NCBI GenBank assembly: GCA_038212235.1
Contig: JBBQUS010000032.1
Location: 1 to 61,966 of the forward strand
Reading direction: 5' to 3'
DNA length: 61,966 nt
Origin: Pyrinomonadales bacterium
GTDB lineage: Bacteria; Acidobacteriota; Blastocatellia; Pyrinomonadales; Pyrinomonadaceae
Below are positions 1 to 6,610 of this stretch, piece after piece. The stretch's first letter is position 1; each line of letters opens with the position of its first letter. The notes below the pieces were generated by a model. It ran no database searches, had not been told where the DNA came from, and saw only the letters and a list, made by a program, of their open reading frames with translations. A program made the translations under genes and the position numbers.

Positions 1-45
1 CCACCGCCGCCGCCGCCGCCGCCGCCCGATCCTGACTTATTATGA
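1..45 (+). CDS. 3' end of an upstream CDS (partial), ending in a poly-Pro tail (PPPPPPPPDPDLL*)
   Basis: In-frame (CCG)n run followed by TGA at 43-45 and a strong hairpin immediately downstream. Alternatively the GCC run is Gly-coding on the minus strand. Confidence 0.25.
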   Translation, partial: PPPPPPPPPDPDLL

Positions 46-190: not shown

Positions 191-270
191 ATTCGGAATT
201 CTTTAAATGAGCGGAATTTGTCAAGATTCGCTATTAACACTTTTATAGAAAACAGCTTTTCAGAATCTAC

Positions 271-873
271 TTACACCGATACTTTTATCTGATTTCCAAA
301 GCGCTGATCTAAATTATCCTGGTATCTTTCATTGAAGCTAAAAAAAACGGCAATCGTGTAGCGTATTCCTTCCGTAACTTCTTTGACCCCGTGTAAGTAT
401 TCTAAAGTTCCGGGAAAAGTAATCAACGTTCCGGCATCGGCCTTCAACTCAAACTGCTGTTTGGGAAAGTGAATGCTTCCGCCTTGATAATCGTTATTTA
501 GGTAGACAACCGCCGCAAAATCTCGCCACGGATAAGGATGCGGCACATCATCCGGATTTTCCTGGTCGGCATGCGGTTCCAATTGATATGTTTGGAGCCA
601 ACGAACCATTTGAAGGTTTTCAGAATAGATAGGTTTCTCGGTTTGCAGGCTTGCCGCCAGAAGGCTTTTCATTCTTTGGCGGGTGTCGAGTAATATTTGC
701 TCGATCTCCGGATTATGAATGCGTTCGAGATTTATGACGCGTCCTGCCCAGAAATCATCGCTTAACGCGCCAAATGTTTCTTCTGCGTTTTCGCAAAAGT
801 CAGTTAATTGACGGCAATAATCAGAGCTTAAAAAATTGGGTTGAATCAATGGAAAAGCAGAAGTGTTATTCAT
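271..873 (-). CDS. 2-oxoglutarate/Fe(II)-dependent dioxygenase, prolyl 4-hydroxylase-like (P4Hc superfamily)
   Basis: H-A-D facial triad (EPHADQ), distal His (LHGV) and 2OG-binding Arg (GIRYTI) in DSBH spacing. 200 aa. Confidence 0.7.
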   Translation of the reverse strand: MNNTSAFPLIQPNFLSSDYCRQLTDFCENAEETFGALSDDFWAGRVINLERIHNPEIEQILLDTRQRMKSLLAASLQTEKPIYSENLQMVRWLQTYQLEPHADQENPDDVPHPYPWRDFAAVVYLNNDYQGGSIHFPKQQFELKADAGTLITFPGTLEYLHGVKEVTEGIRYTIAVFFSFNERYQDNLDQRFGNQIKVSV

Positions 874-1223
874 GAATCTTTTGGCTCACCTTTCAAAACA
901 GATTTGACGATATTTTAGTCAATTTACTGGCGGATAGTTTTTCGAGCAGTTAAGGTGCTGAAAGAATCTTTAACCGGCAATTCCAAAATCTTATCATAGC
1001 GACAAAAACTTAGAAAGCATCTTATTTGTGAGACAGGGCTGATTACTAAATTATTTCGTTTCAGGACTTGGCATTATAAAATGCCCAAGCTTCACGTTAG
1101 ATTAATTCTGTCTTCTTGCTTTATAATTAACGCGGCGTGTTAATATAACCGGCACTTAACGGCGAATCTTTTCTTTAAAATTTCCGCAAGATAAAAATTC
1201 CACTTCTGCTTTTTCAGGCTGTT

Positions 1224-2078
1224 ATGACTGTTGATAATGATTTTGAATATCCCAACTGCCCTTTATGCCAAAGTGAACAAAGAGAAGATAAATATGTAAA
1301 ATTTGGATTACACAAAATAGTGCGTTGTTGTTTATGCCAGGCGTATTATCTGTATCCGCGCTTGACAGAAGATGCGATGCGCCGCGTTTACCTTCAGGAT
1401 GATTATTTTGAAGGAGGTCAGACCGGTTATTCGGACATCAGTTACGCCTTTCAGGAAAAAGCGCTAAGAGCCACTTTCAGACGTTTGATGCGTAGCTTAG
1501 AGAAACGCGGTCTAACCGGAGGATCTTTATTGGAAATCGGATGTGGTTACGGTTTTCTTCTGGAAGAAGCCAAAGAGTTTTATTCCTTGCGCGTCGGTAC
1601 TGAATTTTCATCAAGGGGAGCGCAAATTGCCTCTACGAAGGCCGATAAAATTTTTGAGGGAGGATTGGAAATGCTTCCTCTCGATTTAAAGTTTGACTGC
1701 GTGATTGCGACGCACGTCATTGAACATGTTTATGACCCGCTGGAATTTATCAAAAGCTTGATCAATCACACTAATCGGCACGGCAAGATAGTCCTGGCGG
1801 CTCCTGACATGAACGGACTGCTCAGAAAGTTTTTGGGACATCGTTGGCCATCTTTTAAAATTCCCGAACACGTCACTTATTTCGATTCAACGACGCTTTC
1901 AGCAGTGATGCGGCAAGCAGGATTAAAAAATTTAAACTTGTTGCCTTATCCTCACGCCTTTCCGCTGGCTTTGATAGCTTCAAAATTACATCTCGCACTG
2001 CCCGCGCTCCTGGGCAATATCAAGGTTTGGGTGCCGGCAACGACGGTTGCAATATCGGGGACGGTTTCTCATGACTGA
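1224..2078 (+). CDS. Class I SAM-dependent methyltransferase with an N-terminal Cys4 zinc ribbon
   Basis: Motif I LLEIGCGYGFLLE. N-terminal CPLCQ...CCLCQ. Translationally coupled to the downstream GT2. Confidence 0.75.
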   Translation: MTVDNDFEYPNCPLCQSEQREDKYVKFGLHKIVRCCLCQAYYLYPRLTEDAMRRVYLQDDYFEGGQTGYSDISYAFQEKALRATFRRLMRSLEKRGLTGGSLLEIGCGYGFLLEEAKEFYSLRVGTEFSSRGAQIASTKADKIFEGGLEMLPLDLKFDCVIATHVIEHVYDPLEFIKSLINHTNRHGKIVLAAPDMNGLLRKFLGHRWPSFKIPEHVTYFDSTTLSAVMRQAGLKNLNLLPYPHAFPLALIASKLHLALPALLGNIKVWVPATTVAISGTVSHD

Positions 2079-3051
2079 TATTGATTGCCATAGAAAACCA
2101 ATGATTTCTGTCGTCATGCCGCTTTACTGCGAAGGCAGTCATCTCCGCGCGGTTCTTGCCGATGTCTGCAGCCAGCTTGCCGCAGCAAACGTATCTTACG
2201 AAATAATTTTAGTGGATGACGGTTCGCCCGATAATACATGGGCGATCCTCGATGAAGAAGCAAAAAAGTCAACTGCGATACGCGCAATCCAGTTGAGCAG
2301 AAATTTCGGAAAAGAATTAGCTCTGTGTGCCGGAATAGAGCTGGCGTGTGGGGACGCAATAATAGTGATGGACGGCGATGGACAGCACCCGCCGTCTTTG
2401 TTGCCAAAGATGATTCAGCTGTGGCAGGAAACCGGCGTTGACATCGTCGAAGCAACAAAAACCACGCGCGGCAAGGAATCGTTTTTGAACAAATTGACTG
2501 CCGGATTGTTTTATATTATCTGGAACAAGCTTTCAGGATTTAAATTAAAGGGTGCTTCTGATTTTAAGTTGTTGAACCGAAGAGCTGTTAACGCGTTGCT
2601 CCAGATGGAAGAGCGGAACGTTTTCTTTCGTGGTATGACCGCTTGGCTGGGTTTTAGACGCATTCAAATTTCATTCACCGTCGCCGGACGTCTCAGCGGA
2701 CGCACGGCTTGGTCTCAAATACGACTGATTAACTTGGCTCTAACCGGAATCACTTCATTCTCAACCCTTCCTCTGCATCTTGTCACATTGATGGGCGTGC
2801 TCTTTCTGCTTTTTTCCGTTGTGCTGGGCTTGCAGACACTTTATATAAAATTTTACGGGAAAGGCGTTAGCGGCTTTACAACCGTGATTTTACTTTTGCT
2901 GATTATTGGGAGTTTATTGATGATCAGTCTCGGCATCATCGGCGAGTATTTATCTCGAATTTATGACGAAGTTAAACGCAGACCACGCTATATCATTTCC
3001 CAAACGATTAGAATAAATGGTGAGAATGAAAACCAGAGCTCACGCAGTTGA
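2071..3051 (+). CDS. GT2 polyprenyl-phosphate sugar transferase (ArnC/GtrB/DPM1-like) with C-terminal TM helices
   Basis: VVMPLYCE...ILVDDGSPD...MDGDGQHPP (DXD region) followed by 2-3 TM helices. ATG at 2071 overlaps the MTase stop; an alternative ATG lies at 2101. Confidence 0.8.
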   Translation: MTDIDCHRKPMISVVMPLYCEGSHLRAVLADVCSQLAAANVSYEIILVDDGSPDNTWAILDEEAKKSTAIRAIQLSRNFGKELALCAGIELACGDAIIVMDGDGQHPPSLLPKMIQLWQETGVDIVEATKTTRGKESFLNKLTAGLFYIIWNKLSGFKLKGASDFKLLNRRAVNALLQMEERNVFFRGMTAWLGFRRIQISFTVAGRLSGRTAWSQIRLINLALTGITSFSTLPLHLVTLMGVLFLLFSVVLGLQTLYIKFYGKGVSGFTTVILLLLIIGSLLMISLGIIGEYLSRIYDEVKRRPRYIISQTIRINGENENQSSRS

Positions 3052-3072
3052 CAAAAAATTATTAGATTCAAC

Positions 3073-4896
3073 TCAGTTAGGAATTTCAATCGCAATTTGT
3101 TTTCTGTCGCCGCTGGTAAAGTATATTGTCGCGTTGGGGTGTTGCCGCAGCACCTTTTCTCTGGAAAGCTCCCATAAATCGCTGGAAAGCAGGAGCACGG
3201 CCGGGGCTCGCAGCAGAATCGGCTCGTTGTCATTAAGCAAATGCTCCGGCAGCAATAATTCTACTGTTTGATCAGGATTGGTAAACATTTTAAGCCAATA
3301 CAACCAAGCATTTTCACCGAACCAGAAGTATGGATGCTGTTTGTCCGAGACATAGTAATAATGAGTGTTTGCGACAAATCTTCGGGAATAGACATACCGC
3401 ATGGTCGCACCGGGGGCATATCTCTCCCTCAATCCTCCGCTAATGAAATTGCCGTAATTACTAATGTTTAATGCGACGATGAGGATGGTCACGGCAGTGA
3501 TTATCCGATATTTATAAGTGAGAACCTGTCTTTGACGAGCGACAAACACGGCTATAAATTTGGCAAACTCTTCTACTCCCTTGTACGCGAAGATGATTGC
3601 GTAAGGAAGTAATATGAGCAAACGAGTATAATTAGGATTTTTTGTTGTCAAAAAACTAATAAACAGCCAGACAACAGCGAATTGAGTAATCACGGGAAGA
3701 TACAAATCACGGTTCTTTTTCCGTCTAATTACGGCAAAAACCCCAACCCACAAAAATATACCCGTCAGGAAATCAACAAATCCATATCCGGGATTCCAAT
3801 ACATTGATCCTTCATCGGGTAAATTATTGTTAAAAATAGTTAAGCCTTTGACTGTGTTGCGCAAGACGGCTGTCGGTAGATCATTAACCTTCTCCCATTC
3901 CTGAACAAATTCCCGTCCTTGAGGATAAATAAGCAATTGCTGTTTCGGATAATTTAGAGAATTGCTCGGAGAGTTGTACGACGCAATTAGGATCGGCGCC
4001 GCCGCCAGGAAAAATCCAATTAACGTTGGCAAACCCAGCCTAAAACATTGCTGCAAGAAAAGTTTGCCAACGCCGAATTTGCTAAAACAGTAAATTGCCA
4101 AAAACACAAACCATGCCAGCGGGAGAATCCGAGCCGGATAATACGTGTATAAACTAAATGCTAAGATAGCGCCTCCCGCAAAAAGTTTTCTTGAATTGAT
4201 TTGTCTTAGGCCAGGTATCAAAATGATTAACGATACTAATTGAATTAAAAGGCAATGATTTTCGCGGGTGCTGAGCCGGCTTAGAGCAATTAATGAATGG
4301 CAGCAGCCGAACATAATGGTGGCAAACATCGCAGGCTTCCGCGGAAGAAAAAGACGAAAGAAAAAATAACTGAAAAAGATTGTGCAGATTCCAAAAAAAC
4401 CGTTTACGCGGCGCAAATTTTCGAAATCAACCGCACCTAAAAGGCTGGCGAGGTAGCCGTTAACAACAAAACTCCCTGACGGCAGGTGATAGTAAGTGTC
4501 AGCCAACCCGAACAAATCCGGAGAGGGGCGACTAAGAAGAATTTTACAGACATTGACAACTTCAAGTTCATCACTGCCAATTTGATAGGGCAGATCAAAC
4601 GACAAATATAAATAGAGGGGGGCGCAGGCAAGCGCTATAACCAAAACGAGCGGTGTTTCATTCCAAACATTTAATGATGAAAAATAGGCTTTCTCTGATT
4701 TCGCGAAAACAAAACTGACGACAATTATTGAAAAGCAGAATGAAATGAACAGAGGTGTTGAAAAACCTATCCTGTAATACAAAACACAAAGCAGAGGGTA
4801 GAGAAGAACAAGAGTTATAATACTCATTGCTCGGATGCGTTTTGCTGAACCAGCTGAGTCTGTCAGCCAGCTCTTAACTTTGTCATATGTCATCAT
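3073..4896 (-). CDS. GT-C fold glycosyltransferase (ArnT/PMT, GT39/GT83-like) polytopic membrane protein
   Basis: More than 10 TM helices. Acidic DE motif (GSDELEVV) in the first extracytoplasmic loop. C-terminal soluble domain of about 170 aa. 607 aa. AT-rich. Confidence 0.65.
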   Translation of the reverse strand: MMTYDKVKSWLTDSAGSAKRIRAMSIITLVLLYPLLCVLYYRIGFSTPLFISFCFSIIVVSFVFAKSEKAYFSSLNVWNETPLVLVIALACAPLYLYLSFDLPYQIGSDELEVVNVCKILLSRPSPDLFGLADTYYHLPSGSFVVNGYLASLLGAVDFENLRRVNGFFGICTIFFSYFFFRLFLPRKPAMFATIMFGCCHSLIALSRLSTRENHCLLIQLVSLIILIPGLRQINSRKLFAGGAILAFSLYTYYPARILPLAWFVFLAIYCFSKFGVGKLFLQQCFRLGLPTLIGFFLAAAPILIASYNSPSNSLNYPKQQLLIYPQGREFVQEWEKVNDLPTAVLRNTVKGLTIFNNNLPDEGSMYWNPGYGFVDFLTGIFLWVGVFAVIRRKKNRDLYLPVITQFAVVWLFISFLTTKNPNYTRLLILLPYAIIFAYKGVEEFAKFIAVFVARQRQVLTYKYRIITAVTILIVALNISNYGNFISGGLRERYAPGATMRYVYSRRFVANTHYYYVSDKQHPYFWFGENAWLYWLKMFTNPDQTVELLLPEHLLNDNEPILLRAPAVLLLSSDLWELSREKVLRQHPNATIYFTSGDRKQIAIEIPN

Positions 4897-5005
4897 TTAT
4901 TTTTTGAAGCGTTGCAGTAAAATTTTGCGGAGGAACAAAATGGAAACACTGATGTGGCGTTAAAATCTAGAATTAAAAAATGAGTTTAACAATGGCTGTT
5001 AAAAT

Positions 5006-6091
5006 TTAATCGGCGTTTACTATTTCCACTACCTCGAGAACCAGTTCTCTGTTCCAGCCCCCTGCGACAAATAAGTCAACAATTGCTTCGCCGCTGTAAC
5101 CCTCTCGCATCCTTTCAAGGATATAAAAGAGCATCGCTTTAAAGCTCTCCGAATCCATAAAAGGAAAGTTTGACTGTCTGAGGGCTTCGACATCCAGCGC
5201 TTTTTCAAGTTTACCTTCGTAGCGTAATTTTAATTTTTTTGAAGGGGTTTTGCTGGGGATGCTTGGCTCATTTTGCGGCTGAGGTGAAGCCGTCACAGGG
5301 AGCGACTTCTGATGCTCCGCAAATTTGTTGCCGTAGATATCAACGCCTTTCATATAAAGCAACCCAGGAGCATCTTGATCGTAGTTTGATCGCGCAGTGG
5401 CAAAATCCTGCGTTGCTTTGCGCTCATTTGCGAAGGCTTCGCCGGGCGGATGAAGAGCGATTTGGTAATTATCAATAAAGTGTCGCGGATATGGTAAGAC
5501 GCAGCCGATTGGCGTTCCTTTGGGGAGATAAAAATCTCGATTTGGTGTTGTTACCTTTAGGTTAAAGGTAAAATCCCGCCGTAGTTGATCAGTTTCGACA
5601 ACCGCTGACATATGCATAATTCCTTCAATCGGAAAGTTCGGCGGCTGCGTTACCATCAGGTTGACACCTTTTGGAGTTCGATAAGTCCAGCGATTTTGTA
5701 TTGTCAAAATTCCTGAACCGAAATGGGAACTAATTATTTGATCCTGATTCTCTGGCATCGCGCCCAGTAAATGTACTTTTAAACTTCCGAGATCCAGTTT
5801 ACCGCTCCACCGAACGACAACATCGTGAAGCAGTCGAACTATAAAACCATGCTGGTTCCCGAATGTAATCGGCAGGCAAAAGTAGAAATGATCAACAAAC
5901 CAATCTCGTCCCTTTTGTCCGGCAAGCGGTTCAATCAGTTCAGACGGCAAATGATTAAATCGGTGGTCTTCGGTTAAAACATAAATGGTCTTGTCAGGAA
6001 CATCAACCAGATCGGGAATATTTTCGGAAGGAATGAACGGTTCGGCTGGGCGCTGACCGTAGATGGGTTTTTTCGTCGGCTCTTTACTCAT
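5006..6091 (-). CDS. Hypothetical protein, 361 aa, no recognisable family. Soluble, with an internal low-complexity linker and a small C-terminal domain.
   Basis: Long ORF. ATGA start/stop overlap with the upstream 145-aa ORF. No TM segments. Confidence 0.55.
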   Translation of the reverse strand: MSKEPTKKPIYGQRPAEPFIPSENIPDLVDVPDKTIYVLTEDHRFNHLPSELIEPLAGQKGRDWFVDHFYFCLPITFGNQHGFIVRLLHDVVVRWSGKLDLGSLKVHLLGAMPENQDQIISSHFGSGILTIQNRWTYRTPKGVNLMVTQPPNFPIEGIMHMSAVVETDQLRRDFTFNLKVTTPNRDFYLPKGTPIGCVLPYPRHFIDNYQIALHPPGEAFANERKATQDFATARSNYDQDAPGLLYMKGVDIYGNKFAEHQKSLPVTASPQPQNEPSIPSKTPSKKLKLRYEGKLEKALDVEALRQSNFPFMDSESFKAMLFYILERMREGYSGEAIVDLFVAGGWNRELVLEVVEIVNAD

Positions 6092-6525
6092 TTCAGCTCG
6101 TTATGTCTGGCGAAAAACTTTGGATAAACTCTTCTTTCAAGTGAACTATCGGCGAAGAAAAAAATGTTTTTGTCGCTATTGTCTTCAGTTGCCTCAAAAT
6201 ACATGTAATTAGATTTTTCTTTTTGGCTGGACTCTTTTTCCGCATTCCAAATACTGAGTTTTAAATAGCACTGTTTGGTCAGAATAAAGTCACGCAGCCA
6301 AAGACTGTTATTTTCGCCGAAAAAGTCCGGAAGGATATTTGATTGTTCTTCTCTCCTTTCGTCAGCCGGACCGATAATAGTTCTGGCGCAAACAAACAGA
6401 GGTTCTTTCGGAGGTTTGTTTTCTACAACGTAGCTGCTCAAAAAGAGGTCGTGAACAAAACGTGGATTCGAGGAAACAATAAAACAATTTTCAGCTTTTA
6501 TGACATCGGGAACATCTTTGCTCAT
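6088..6525 (-). CDS. Hypothetical protein, 145 aa, AT-rich. Translationally coupled to the 361-aa ORF.
   Basis: ORF with 4-nt overlap to the downstream gene. GC is clearly lower than the window average. No known motif. Confidence 0.5.
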   Translation of the reverse strand: MSKDVPDVIKAENCFIVSSNPRFVHDLFLSSYVVENKPPKEPLFVCARTIIGPADERREEQSNILPDFFGENNSLWLRDFILTKQCYLKLSIWNAEKESSQKEKSNYMYFEATEDNSDKNIFFFADSSLERRVYPKFFARHNELK

Positions 6526-6610
6526 TTTGTTTGTTTATTCTTCAAACTAAAATAGTATAAAACACAACAACCCGATAAGGGAACAAGATTATTTCTCCCG
6601 CTTCGGATTT

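Follow-up and report, generated by a model that had tools for sequence, protein, structure and literature searches.

A low-GC locus of a Pyrinomonadales bacterium that may combine a conserved DUF6065–oxygenase module with a variable glycosylation cassette

Do six AT-rich genes at the left end of a Pyrinomonadales contig encode a single pathway, or do they combine parts with separate histories? Within a single genus of diderm bacteria, the locus borders two core genes, crtI and mtgA. An earlier note on the window (i.e. the whole 61,966-nucleotide stretch of DNA that was analysed) had read these genes as one polyprenyl-phosphate glycosylation block. An ORF check of the window found all six, and the features of the locus are as follows:

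148-182, hairpin: perfect 17-bp stem with an A-run and a T-run on its flanks
271-873, minus strand, oxygenase: P4H/P3H-type Fe(II)/2-oxoglutarate oxygenase with a PF13640 match
874-1223, divergent intergenic region between the oxygenase gene and MTase-GT2
1224-2078, plus strand, MTase: zinc-ribbon and class I SAM methyltransferase with a Methyltransf_23 match
2071-3051, plus strand, GT2: GtrB/ArnC-type polyprenyl-phosphate glycosyltransferase with a PF00535 match
3073-4896, minus strand, GT-C: putative PMT_2/ArnT-like membrane glycosyltransferase of GT-C fold (607 aa)
5006-6091, minus strand, DUF6065 gene: 361 aa with a PF19541 match
6088-6525, minus strand, hyp145: small protein of 145 aa, predicted to be all-beta

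The six genes had GC contents of 0.39–0.46 and GC3 values of 0.39–0.50, with a mean GC3 of 0.44 as compared to 0.53 (SD 0.046) for the other 40 ORFs of the window (P = 2e-4 for lower GC3, one-sided Mann-Whitney test). The AT-richness noticed earlier was thus borne out as a modest but consistent shift, and the 145-aa gene, singled out as especially AT-rich, had the lowest GC of the six (0.386). Both of the short overlaps described earlier were also present: hyp145 and the DUF6065 gene share 4 nt (ATGA), and the MTase and GT2 genes share 8 nt when ATG 2071, preceded by a Shine-Dalgarno-like GGGGA, is taken as the GT2 start (TTG 2047 and ATG 2101 are other candidates). The MTase is translationally coupled to GT2. 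Promoter-like matches in the divergent intergenic region were no more frequent than expected by chance; this region is bracketed by a 21-nt inverted repeat (850-870 and 1196-1216; 86% complementary). The hairpin at 148-182 is probably a bidirectional terminator closing both the oxygenase gene and a convergent contig-end gene. This neighbour ends at window position 45 with a Pro-rich C-terminus (...PPPPPPPPPDPDLL), and 14 of its codons are visible. Another perfect hairpin lies at 60-100.

Inheritance of the six genes was assessed by comparison with three close relatives (i.e. L001, L004 and L005). All three carry hyp145, the DUF6065 gene and the GT-C gene in that order beside mtgA, with the oxygenase gene next (the L004 contig holds only its first 48 residues), such that the GT-C gene lies between the DUF6065 and oxygenase genes in 4/4 genomes of the genus. 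No MTase homologue was detected by tblastn in any of the three. The GT2 of L001, at 34% identity, is not an orthologue; that of L004 is 65% identical, and L005 lacks the gene. Identities between the window and L001 were 94% for crtI, 95% for mtgA, 78% for hyp145, 87% for DUF6065 and 85% for the oxygenase, as compared to 50% for GT-C and 34% for GT2. The GT-C was 47–50% identical to the copies of relatives whose mtgA and crtI are 88–95% identical, and no DNA homology was found across positions 883-3063. Outside the genus, GT-C homologues at 31–34% identity pair with a GT2 in loci that lack DUF6065 and the oxygenase, and most DUF6065 loci, with their partners, lack a GT-C. Co-inheritance of the six genes as one block, as formerly assumed, is therefore not supported by synteny. 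Instead, the GT2, GT-C and MTase genes (module 2) are hypervariable: the GT-C is the hypervariable member, MTase-GT2 is a replaceable cassette and, of the genomes compared, only this one carries the MTase. Replacement and diversification in module 2 account for much of the low GC.

The probable activities of module 2 belong to a known kind. GT2 matched Glycos_transf_2 (PF00535; E 1.2e-29), and its best solved relative was the GtrB protein sll0501 (5ekp; E 3.5e-68, residues 12-311), with ArnC also matching (E 1.7e-41, residues 6-318); both alignments extend over the full length, juxtamembrane region included. The DxD-type motif of a GT-A catalytic domain was present (DD at position 49, DGD at position 101), as were two C-terminal TM helices (235-253 and 269-287). 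These features support its assignment as a polyprenyl-phosphate glycosyltransferase of the GtrB/ArnC type. Full-length NCBIfam matches fell below the equivalog cut-offs (159.9 bits vs 529 for ArnC; 252.1 vs 500 for PgfS), so that sugar specificity cannot be inferred from them. The 607-aa protein scored 22.5 bits against PMT_2 in Pfam, below the cut-off of 26.1 bits, and matched no PDB sequence, even with a profile; 10 of 21 homologues have precomputed PF13231 and/or PF02366 matches. It contains 10 hydrophobic TM segments and a DE motif (D109-E110) after TM3, which is retained without exception in 15 homologues, the most distant at 28% identity, supporting its prediction as a GT-C of the PMT/ArnT type. 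Recurrent pairing with a GtrB-type GT2 makes a polyprenyl-phosphate sugar a reasonable candidate for its donor. The MTase was as described earlier, with a Methyltransf_23 match (E 1e-21) and an N-terminal zinc ribbon (CPLC...CCLC, i.e. CxxC...CxC) that can be read directly from the sequence.

The systems GtrB/GtrC (with GtrA; O-antigen glucosylation) and ArnC/ArnT (lipid A modification), and the related CsbB/YfhO and PgfS/PgfM, likewise combine a GT2 with two C-terminal TM helices and a multi-TM GT-C. In those systems, the GT2 makes a polyprenyl-phosphate sugar that the GT-C uses outside the cytoplasmic membrane. The gtr clusters resemble the window cassette in being variable between close relatives. 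Unlike the systems with GtrA or ArnEF, no flippase gene was seen in the window locus, and unlike the Gtr and Arn systems, GT2 is coupled to a zinc-ribbon MTase; the window proteins also differ from GtrB/ArnC systems in that the GT-C lacks a solved relative detectable by sequence and GT2 falls short of the equivalog level. The ArnC/ArnT-like part of the earlier scheme hence stays reasonable as regards the enzyme types and transfer from an undecaprenyl-phosphate sugar to a periplasmic acceptor, though not as a single six-gene block.

The remaining three genes (hyp145, DUF6065 and oxygenase; module 1) had been judged to lack an obvious place in known pathways, and two of them to be hypotheticals. 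An HMM search placed the 361-aa protein in a family, DUF6065 (PF19541; 112.8 bits vs a Pfam cut-off of 26.6), and all 47 aligned homologues matched the same model. The protein consists of a dUTPase-like beta core (about 35-213), a long helix, a conserved Y-G-D...H-Q tail and a lineage-specific C-terminal four-helix domain (301-360). It is alike in fold to the dUTPase/dCTP deaminase superfamily (beta-clip), although identity is 7–14% and its motifs (SHFGxGxxTxQ, PPN, ETDxLRRDFTFN, PYPR and HQ) are its own and not those of dUTPases. DUF6065 is highly conserved, with about 30 invariant residues, many of them Arg, Asp and His, and the family comprises hundreds of sequence clusters. Relatives occur in uncultured Caudovirales and Synechococcus phage S-CAM3. 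No literature on DUF6065 was found. Structure prediction and HMM searches were less informative for the 145-aa protein, which matched nothing in Pfam, NCBIfam or PDB and whose AF2 model (pLDDT 45) is too poor for assigning a role.

The P4H-like nature of the oxygenase was upheld by a PF13640 (2OG-FeII_Oxy_3) match (E 4.6e-10; 40.8 bits vs a cut-off of 27) and by an HxD...H facial triad and 2OG-binding Arg (H101-A-D103, H161 and R171) that are invariant across 25 family members. A PF13640 match does not in itself single out prolyl hydroxylases. The best PDB match was the catalytic domain of prolyl 3-hydroxylase 1 (P3H1; E 2.3e-9), over residues 111-187 only, followed by PiuC-type hydroxylases (E about 0.05).

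Neighbourhoods of DUF6065 genes were examined using stop-to-stop ORFs rather than curated annotations. By iterated HMM, a hyp145 homologue was located directly upstream of DUF6065 and on the same strand in 22/65 non-redundant loci, from cyanobacteria, Obscuribacterales, Planctomycetota, Bdellovibrionales and an actinobacterium; hyp145 thereby founds a previously unannotated family encoded immediately 5' of DUF6065 genes. Members of the oxygenase family, the customary operon partner of DUF6065, were directly upstream in about 28/65 loci, with spacers of 8–18 nt, and are fused to DUF6065 in one genome (L014). In a reciprocal scan from the oxygenase, DUF6065 was within 4 kb in 67/76 evaluable loci, in either gene order. 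Nearly every DUF6065 gene has one or the other of these two partners upstream, and the genus of the window carries both. Because of these associations, hyp145, DUF6065 and the oxygenase belong together as a conserved module, which supersedes the earlier view of them. No signal peptide or TM segment was found in any of the three proteins, and module 1 is predicted to be cytoplasmic.

The best explanation overall, to which we assign a probability of about 0.5, is that the region is a two-module mosaic whose parts have had separate evolutionary histories. In the preferred mechanism, the oxygenase would hydroxylate a protein or peptide, most likely at proline, with DUF6065 as its obligate partner (i.e. 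a second enzyme or a substrate-presenting subunit) and hyp145 as a stoichiometric accessory subunit. Module 2 would form a GtrB/GtrC-like or ArnC/ArnT-like two-component system. On the cytoplasmic side of the membrane, GT2 would attach a sugar to undecaprenyl phosphate; in this genome the coupled MTase may methylate that sugar, and the GT-C would pass it to a periplasmic acceptor. That both modules act on the same substrate is a tentative proposal with somewhat less than an even chance, a figure that reflects the wedged position of the GT-C gene throughout the genus and the presence of membrane glycan transferases beside DUF6065 in two other lineages. The adjacency of the GT-C gene to module 1 could also be a tolerated insertion.

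Protein chemistry at Pro or Hyp is suggested by the P3H1 relationship and by the fusions and neighbours of DUF6065. The fused domains are HPAT-like (weak matches of 24–29 bits), P4H-like, cyclophilin and TPR repeats; nearby genes encode PhyH, a PhyH-Methyltransf_28 fusion, Cupin_8/JmjC, HTTM and TPR proteins. Operons of clade B contain an SSF transporter, PhyH or a fatty-acid hydroxylase, which hints at a small-molecule or lipid substrate. The dUTPase-like fold, phage homologues and helicase- and RuvB-like neighbours (L124/L127, where a RuvB-like ATPase, a Hel308-like helicase and a kinase-like gene adjoin the DUF6065-oxygenase pair) are as compatible with a nucleotide or nucleic acid as with a protein substrate. 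Module 1 might then, unrelated to the glycosylation cassette, hydroxylate for example a pyrimidine base recognised by DUF6065, and the presence of the pair in many unrelated neighbourhoods is as expected of a self-contained housekeeping function. This alternative is quite unlikely: no dUTPase or dCTP deaminase was matched by any of the 47 DUF6065 members in Pfam (E up to 5) or by the DUF6065 profile among PDB sequences (E up to 10), hhalign with a single dUTPase sequence gave a probability of 0.7%, tblastn found no phage genome match, and the TPR, cyclophilin and HPAT-like fusions, together with the JmjC and HTTM neighbours, point to proteins.

If the six genes formed one integrated pathway, as the earlier note proposed, the cytoplasmic trio would tailor a sugar donor in the manner of ArnA/B/C/T: DUF6065 would bind an NDP-sugar nucleotide via its dUTPase-like fold, the oxygenase would hydroxylate the sugar, the MTase would methylate it, GT2 would load it onto undecaprenyl phosphate and the GT-C would deliver it to lipid A, a glycan or a protein. 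The fold, the invariant Arg, Asp and His residues and the position of the GT-C gene in all four genomes are consistent with such a pathway, as are the HPAT-like glycosyltransferase fusions and several glycan loci. In Planktothrix (L027), a small gene and a DUF6065x2-cyclophilin gene are followed 24 nt downstream by a different PMT_2 GT-C, with a GT2 nearby; in another lineage of cyanobacteria (L021/L023), the pair is immediately preceded by a Wzy_C gene; GT4 genes and an MTase adjoin DUF6065 in L008; and capsule/EPS genes (Glycos_transf_4 and Poly_export) adjoin the pair in L057/L059. However, such genes are near only a minority of DUF6065 loci (roughly 10–15%), and most DUF6065-oxygenase pairs lack a nearby glycosyltransferase. 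The GT2 cassette, which in this scheme must accept the tailored sugar, is exchanged or absent in relatives that retain the trio; a nucleotide-sugar enzyme would not readily explain the TPR and cyclophilin fusions; and dUTPase sequence motifs were not detectable in DUF6065. One integrated pathway is judged unlikely. A bacterial hydroxyproline O-glycosylation, in which the trio would hydroxylate, inside the cytoplasm, proline residues of a Pro-rich protein destined for secretion and the GT-C would, after export, glycosylate Hyp (or nearby Ser/Thr) with the undecaprenyl-phosphate sugar of GT2, is more doubtful than either of these alternatives. It would mirror plant P4H followed by HPAT, or PhyA followed by Gnt1 on Skp1, and would draw on the P4H/P3H type of the oxygenase, the HPAT-family, cyclophilin and TPR domains fused to DUF6065, the membership of the GT-C in the PMT_2 type (a family of protein O-mannosyltransferases) and the Pro-rich C-terminus of the convergent gene. 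Yet the visible part of that gene is just 14 codons long, the corresponding neighbour in L005 lacks a poly-Pro end, most DUF6065-oxygenase loci are without any GT-C, and enzymes of the oxygenase family could act on other residues or on substrates other than proteins.

The two-module mosaic nevertheless shares features with eukaryotic pathways (i.e. plant P4H and HPAT; PhyA and Gnt1 of Skp1; the collagen complex P3H1-CRTAP-cyclophilin B). A P4H/P3H-type oxygenase is likewise linked genetically to glycosyltransferases here, and the DUF6065 family is linked to HPAT-like, cyclophilin and TPR domains. In P3H1, TPR repeats and a 2OG domain occur in one protein, which also binds cyclophilin B. DUF6065 and hyp145, however, are without a counterpart in these pathways, and the GT-C would act in the periplasm, apart from the compartment of the oxygenase. 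The furthest-reaching possibility, to which we give little credence, is that the DUF6065-oxygenase pair, with hyp145 as alternative or additional partner, is a widespread unrecognised modification system of bacteria and probably some archaea, with relatives in phages, and that in this genus it feeds the periplasmic GT-C. This would be the first bacterial proline-hydroxylation and hydroxyproline O-glycosylation pathway, with a Pro-rich exported protein as acceptor, such as the poly-Pro protein at the contig end.

The GtrB/GT-C half of the locus is of note mainly as a hot spot of surface-glycan diversification. Of more value is the finding that DUF6065 genes pair with one particular P4H-type oxygenase or with a small protein that had not been annotated before. 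The fusion partners of DUF6065 suggest concrete, testable biochemistry, and a defined three-protein set is now open to expression and assay. If the link to the GT-C is functional, the locus would represent a hydroxylation-dependent glycosylation route in bacteria.

The positions of six ORFs described in an earlier note, which had read the left end of the window (200-6550) as a low-GC island for polyprenyl-phosphate glycosylation, were all borne out.

Genes of the window locus, with Pfam/NCBIfam matches
271-873, minus strand: P4H-type Fe(II)/2OG oxygenase; 2OG-FeII_Oxy_3
1224-2078, plus strand: methyltransferase (MTase); Methyltransf_23, with an N-terminal CPLC...CCLC zinc ribbon visible in the sequence
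2071-3051, plus strand: glycosyltransferase GT2; Glycos_transf_2
3073-4896, minus strand: 607-aa glycosyltransferase GT-C; sub-threshold match to PMT_2
5006-6091, minus strand: 361-aa protein; DUF6065 (PF19541, 112.8 bits)
6088-6525, minus strand: 145-aa protein (hyp145); no match

The proposed overlaps were also found: the hyp145 and DUF6065 genes share an ATGA, and the MTase and GT2 genes overlap by 8 nt provided that GT2 starts at the ATG at 2071, which is preceded by a GGGGA motif. A composition check confirmed the low GC of the six genes, with a mean GC3 of 0.44 as compared to 0.53 (SD 0.046) in the other 40 ORFs (p = 2e-4, one-sided Mann-Whitney), and the hyp145 gene, singled out as AT-rich, had the lowest GC of the six (0.386). 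The window, apparently a complete contig of 61,966 bp, also encodes lpxK and mtgA, indicating that its source is a diderm bacterium.

Conservation of the locus was examined in three close relatives (L001, L004 and L005), picked via DUF6065 at 81-87% identity. Along the direction of the hyp145-DUF6065 operon (i.e. the window minus strand), the window order is crtI, mtgA, hyp145, DUF6065, GT-C, GT2 and MTase (opposite strand), oxygenase. L001 has the same order as far as GT-C, followed by a different GT2 (same strand), a 390-aa protein with nine TM segments and the oxygenase; L004 likewise matches as far as GT-C, followed by a 245-aa weakly MTase-like protein, a GT2 and the start of the oxygenase. 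L005 reads mtgA, hyp145, DUF6065, GT-C, oxygenase, without GT2 or MTase.

Protein identity to the window in L001, L004 and L005, respectively
crtI: 94%, 87%, 94%
mtgA: 95%, 88%, 96%
hyp145: 78%, 66%, 76%
DUF6065: 87%, 82%, 81%
GT-C: 50%, 47%, 49%
GT2: 34%, 65%, no match
Oxygenase: 85%, 56% (first 48 residues only), 70%

No DNA similarity was observed anywhere across window positions 883-3063. These gene orders and identities indicate that the genus stably retains hyp145, DUF6065, GT-C and the oxygenase together, that GT-C evolves or is exchanged far faster than the adjoining genes, and that the GT2 (+MTase) cassette occupies a position open to replacement. A single co-inherited six-gene pathway, as proposed in the earlier note, does not survive this comparison, as relatives swap or drop GT2 and MTase. 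Recent horizontal acquisition of the whole locus as an island bounded by repeats or a tRNA was rejected because the insertion point by mtgA and the gene order are common to the three relatives, and no repeats flanking the window locus were found; the exchanged part looks to be the GT-C/GT2/MTase segment only. A carotenoid-glycoside pathway involving crtI was also discarded, as mtgA lies in between, GT2 is of the membrane-anchored GtrB type and adjacency to crtI is not general. The 390-aa protein of L001 (14492-15664), which sits where the window has the MTase and has no Pfam match, is a possible flippase or polymerase-like protein.

The margins of the locus presented further features. The contig starts inside a gene (1-45, plus strand) whose last codons, encoded by a (CCG)n run, read PPPPPPPPPDPDLL followed by a stop; this gene is convergent with the oxygenase gene and is followed by perfect terminator hairpins at 60-100 and 148-182. 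The assembly probably broke because of the (CCG)n repeat; in L001, too, the contig (4.79 Mb) stops 24 nt beyond the oxygenase gene. The poly-Pro neighbour was rejected as a conserved substrate gene, since L005 has a different gene at the equivalent position, without a poly-Pro end. A 21-nt inverted repeat (850-870 and 1196-1216, 86% complementary) surrounds the divergent intergenic region, with one arm overlapping the initial codons of the oxygenase gene and the other just upstream of the MTase start. The repeat may act as an operator for both sides or may have arisen by chance.

The distribution of DUF6065 was assessed by a protein search, which yielded 312 homologue clusters with ~30 invariant residues, and by scanning one genome per GTDB species, from which 65 non-redundant loci were analysed. 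Of the 65 loci, 22 had a hyp145 homologue directly upstream of DUF6065 and in the same orientation, in hosts comprising cyanobacteria, Obscuribacterales, Planctomycetota, Bdellovibrionales and an actinobacterium, and every hyp145 HMM match among 11,705 ORFs fell at this slot. In ~28 other loci, mainly from Steroidobacteraceae and other Pseudomonadota plus Pirellulaceae, the upstream slot was occupied by a 200-aa oxygenase 42-48% identical to that of the window, with spacers of 8-18 nt between the two genes; a Hyphomicrobiaceae locus encoded a fusion protein, DUF6065 then oxygenase. In a reciprocal test, metagenome contigs were searched with an oxygenase alignment, and DUF6065 was present within 4 kb of the oxygenase in 67 of 76 evaluable loci, usually abutting and in either order; one such contig also encodes a homologue of volactin, an archaeal-type actin. 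Both partners occurred together only in the genus of the window. The oxygenase and the two unknown proteins, described previously as having no obvious place, thus belong to a widespread, unstudied module. No mention of DUF6065, PF19541 or IPR045709 was found in the literature, and general literature searches on bacterial Hyp glycosylation returned nothing relevant.

The oxygenase has invariant H101-x-D103, H161 and R171 residues, and among solved structures its best match was to the prolyl 3-hydroxylase 1 catalytic domain (E 2.3e-9). The hyp145 family is detectable only via gene context: no match was obtained among Pfam families or PDB sequences, a word-index search returned seven close matches, and a seven-sequence profile run against 1.84 billion representatives recovered its own cluster only. 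That hyp145 is a degenerate copy of the oxygenase or of DUF6065 was rejected (hhalign probability of 0.2% for each). A weak, non-significant match of hyp145 (6109-6516, minus strand) to Herpes_U55 (E 0.026), which we take to be a dUTPase-related herpesvirus protein family, is probably noise and is curious only since the partner DUF6065 has a dUTPase-like fold.

Full-length alignments of GT2 were obtained with GtrB, a polyisoprenyl-phosphate glycosyltransferase of solved structure (5ekp, E 3.5e-68), and with ArnC (E 1.7e-41); the protein carries a DGD motif, and its C-terminus has two TM helices. Scores well under the ArnC and PgfS equivalog cut-offs do not point to a particular sugar. GT-C has 10 hydrophobic segments and, following TM3, a D109-E110 pair shared without exception by 15 homologues with identities as low as 28%; PMT and/or PMT_2 matches were present in 10 of 21 homologues, and no match was found among PDB sequences, even with a profile. 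Homologues of GT-C at 31-34% identity lie 1.5-2 kb from a GT2 of 317-332 aa, within suf neighbourhoods that are otherwise unrelated and lack both DUF6065 and the oxygenase. These findings indicate that GT-C and GT2 constitute an autonomous two-component module, of the same type as GtrB/GtrC or ArnC/ArnT. The glycosylation reading of the earlier note is accordingly sound for two of the six genes, and plausibly for the MTase, and fails as a single six-gene pathway.

A true functional coupling between the trio (oxygenase, hyp145 and DUF6065) and the glycosyltransferases has somewhat less than an even chance. In each of the four genomes from the genus, the GT-C gene is placed between those for DUF6065 and the oxygenase; in the window, 109 nt separate it from the DUF6065 gene upstream, and this gap holds no terminator-like site. 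In Planktothrix, the pair of a hyp145 homologue and a DUF6065x2-cyclophilin gene is joined, 24 nt downstream, by a different PMT_2 GT-C, with a GT2 1.5 kb beyond; elsewhere a Wzy_C (O-antigen ligase/O-OTase family) gene is directly upstream of the pair (L021/L023), or the pair adjoins Glycos_transf_4 and Poly_export genes, or GT4 genes. However, most DUF6065 loci have no glycan genes nearby, and the GT2 that makes the donor is replaced or missing in genomes that retain the trio. In addition, the trio lacks signal peptides and TM segments and is thus cytoplasmic, on the opposite side of the membrane from the site of GT-C action.

Several DUF6065 loci exhibited distinctive arrangements. Two cyanobacterial/melainabacterial genomes (JAFEAT010000013.1, L025/L033; DATNPZ010000004.1, L028/L068) carry two hyp145-DUF6065 modules ~10 kb apart, with TPR-fused DUF6065 paralogues and PhyH-Methyltransf_28 fusion genes between them. 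Tandem DUF6065 paralogues in L008 (7001-8453) adjoin two GT4 genes, a double methyltransferase and a protein of >2,300 aa, on a 294-kb contig from an assembly of very many contigs that may represent a bacterium, a eukaryote or a giant virus. L124 (47-8241) is a tightly overlapping operon of a RuvB-like ATPase, DUF6065, three unknown or kinase-like genes, the oxygenase and another unknown gene, with volactin and subtilase genes after it, and suggests that the DUF6065-oxygenase pair, here with three genes between its members, also occurs in archaea. In Aerosakkonema (L006/L007, 7803-10011), hyp145-DUF6065 is followed by overlapping genes, one for a radical SAM protein and one for a 438-aa protein without a Pfam match, possibly another partner set.

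Fusions and neighbours of DUF6065 bear on the substrate of the trio. DUF6065 is fused to a domain of the HPAT (hydroxyproline O-arabinosyltransferase) family in four Planctomycetota loci (24-29 bits, barely over the cut-off), to a cyclophilin prolyl isomerase in Planktothrix and to TPR arrays in three loci. Neighbours include PhyH dioxygenases, PhyH-Methyltransf_28 fusions and Cupin_8/JmjC, HTTM, TPR and methyltransferase genes; one subgroup of operons (clade B) has an SSF transporter, a PhyH or fatty-acid hydroxylase and a convergent FGGY kinase, and two further contigs have a RuvB-like ATPase or Hel308-like helicase nearby. A protein substrate is the first choice (roughly 45%) because of these proline/hydroxyproline and protein-binding themes. 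A nucleotide substrate, for which the dUTPase-like fold, phage relatives of DUF6065 and neighbouring genes for DNA enzymes argue, is a less likely but serious alternative. A tblastn search of 50,697 phage records gave no match to DUF6065, and the idea that DUF6065 is a genuine dUTPase or dCTP deaminase was rejected, as the fold agrees but the sequence signal is absent. Another substrate, such as a small molecule or lipid, is slightly less likely than a nucleotide. The domain fusions of the module suggest a chemistry that can be assayed.
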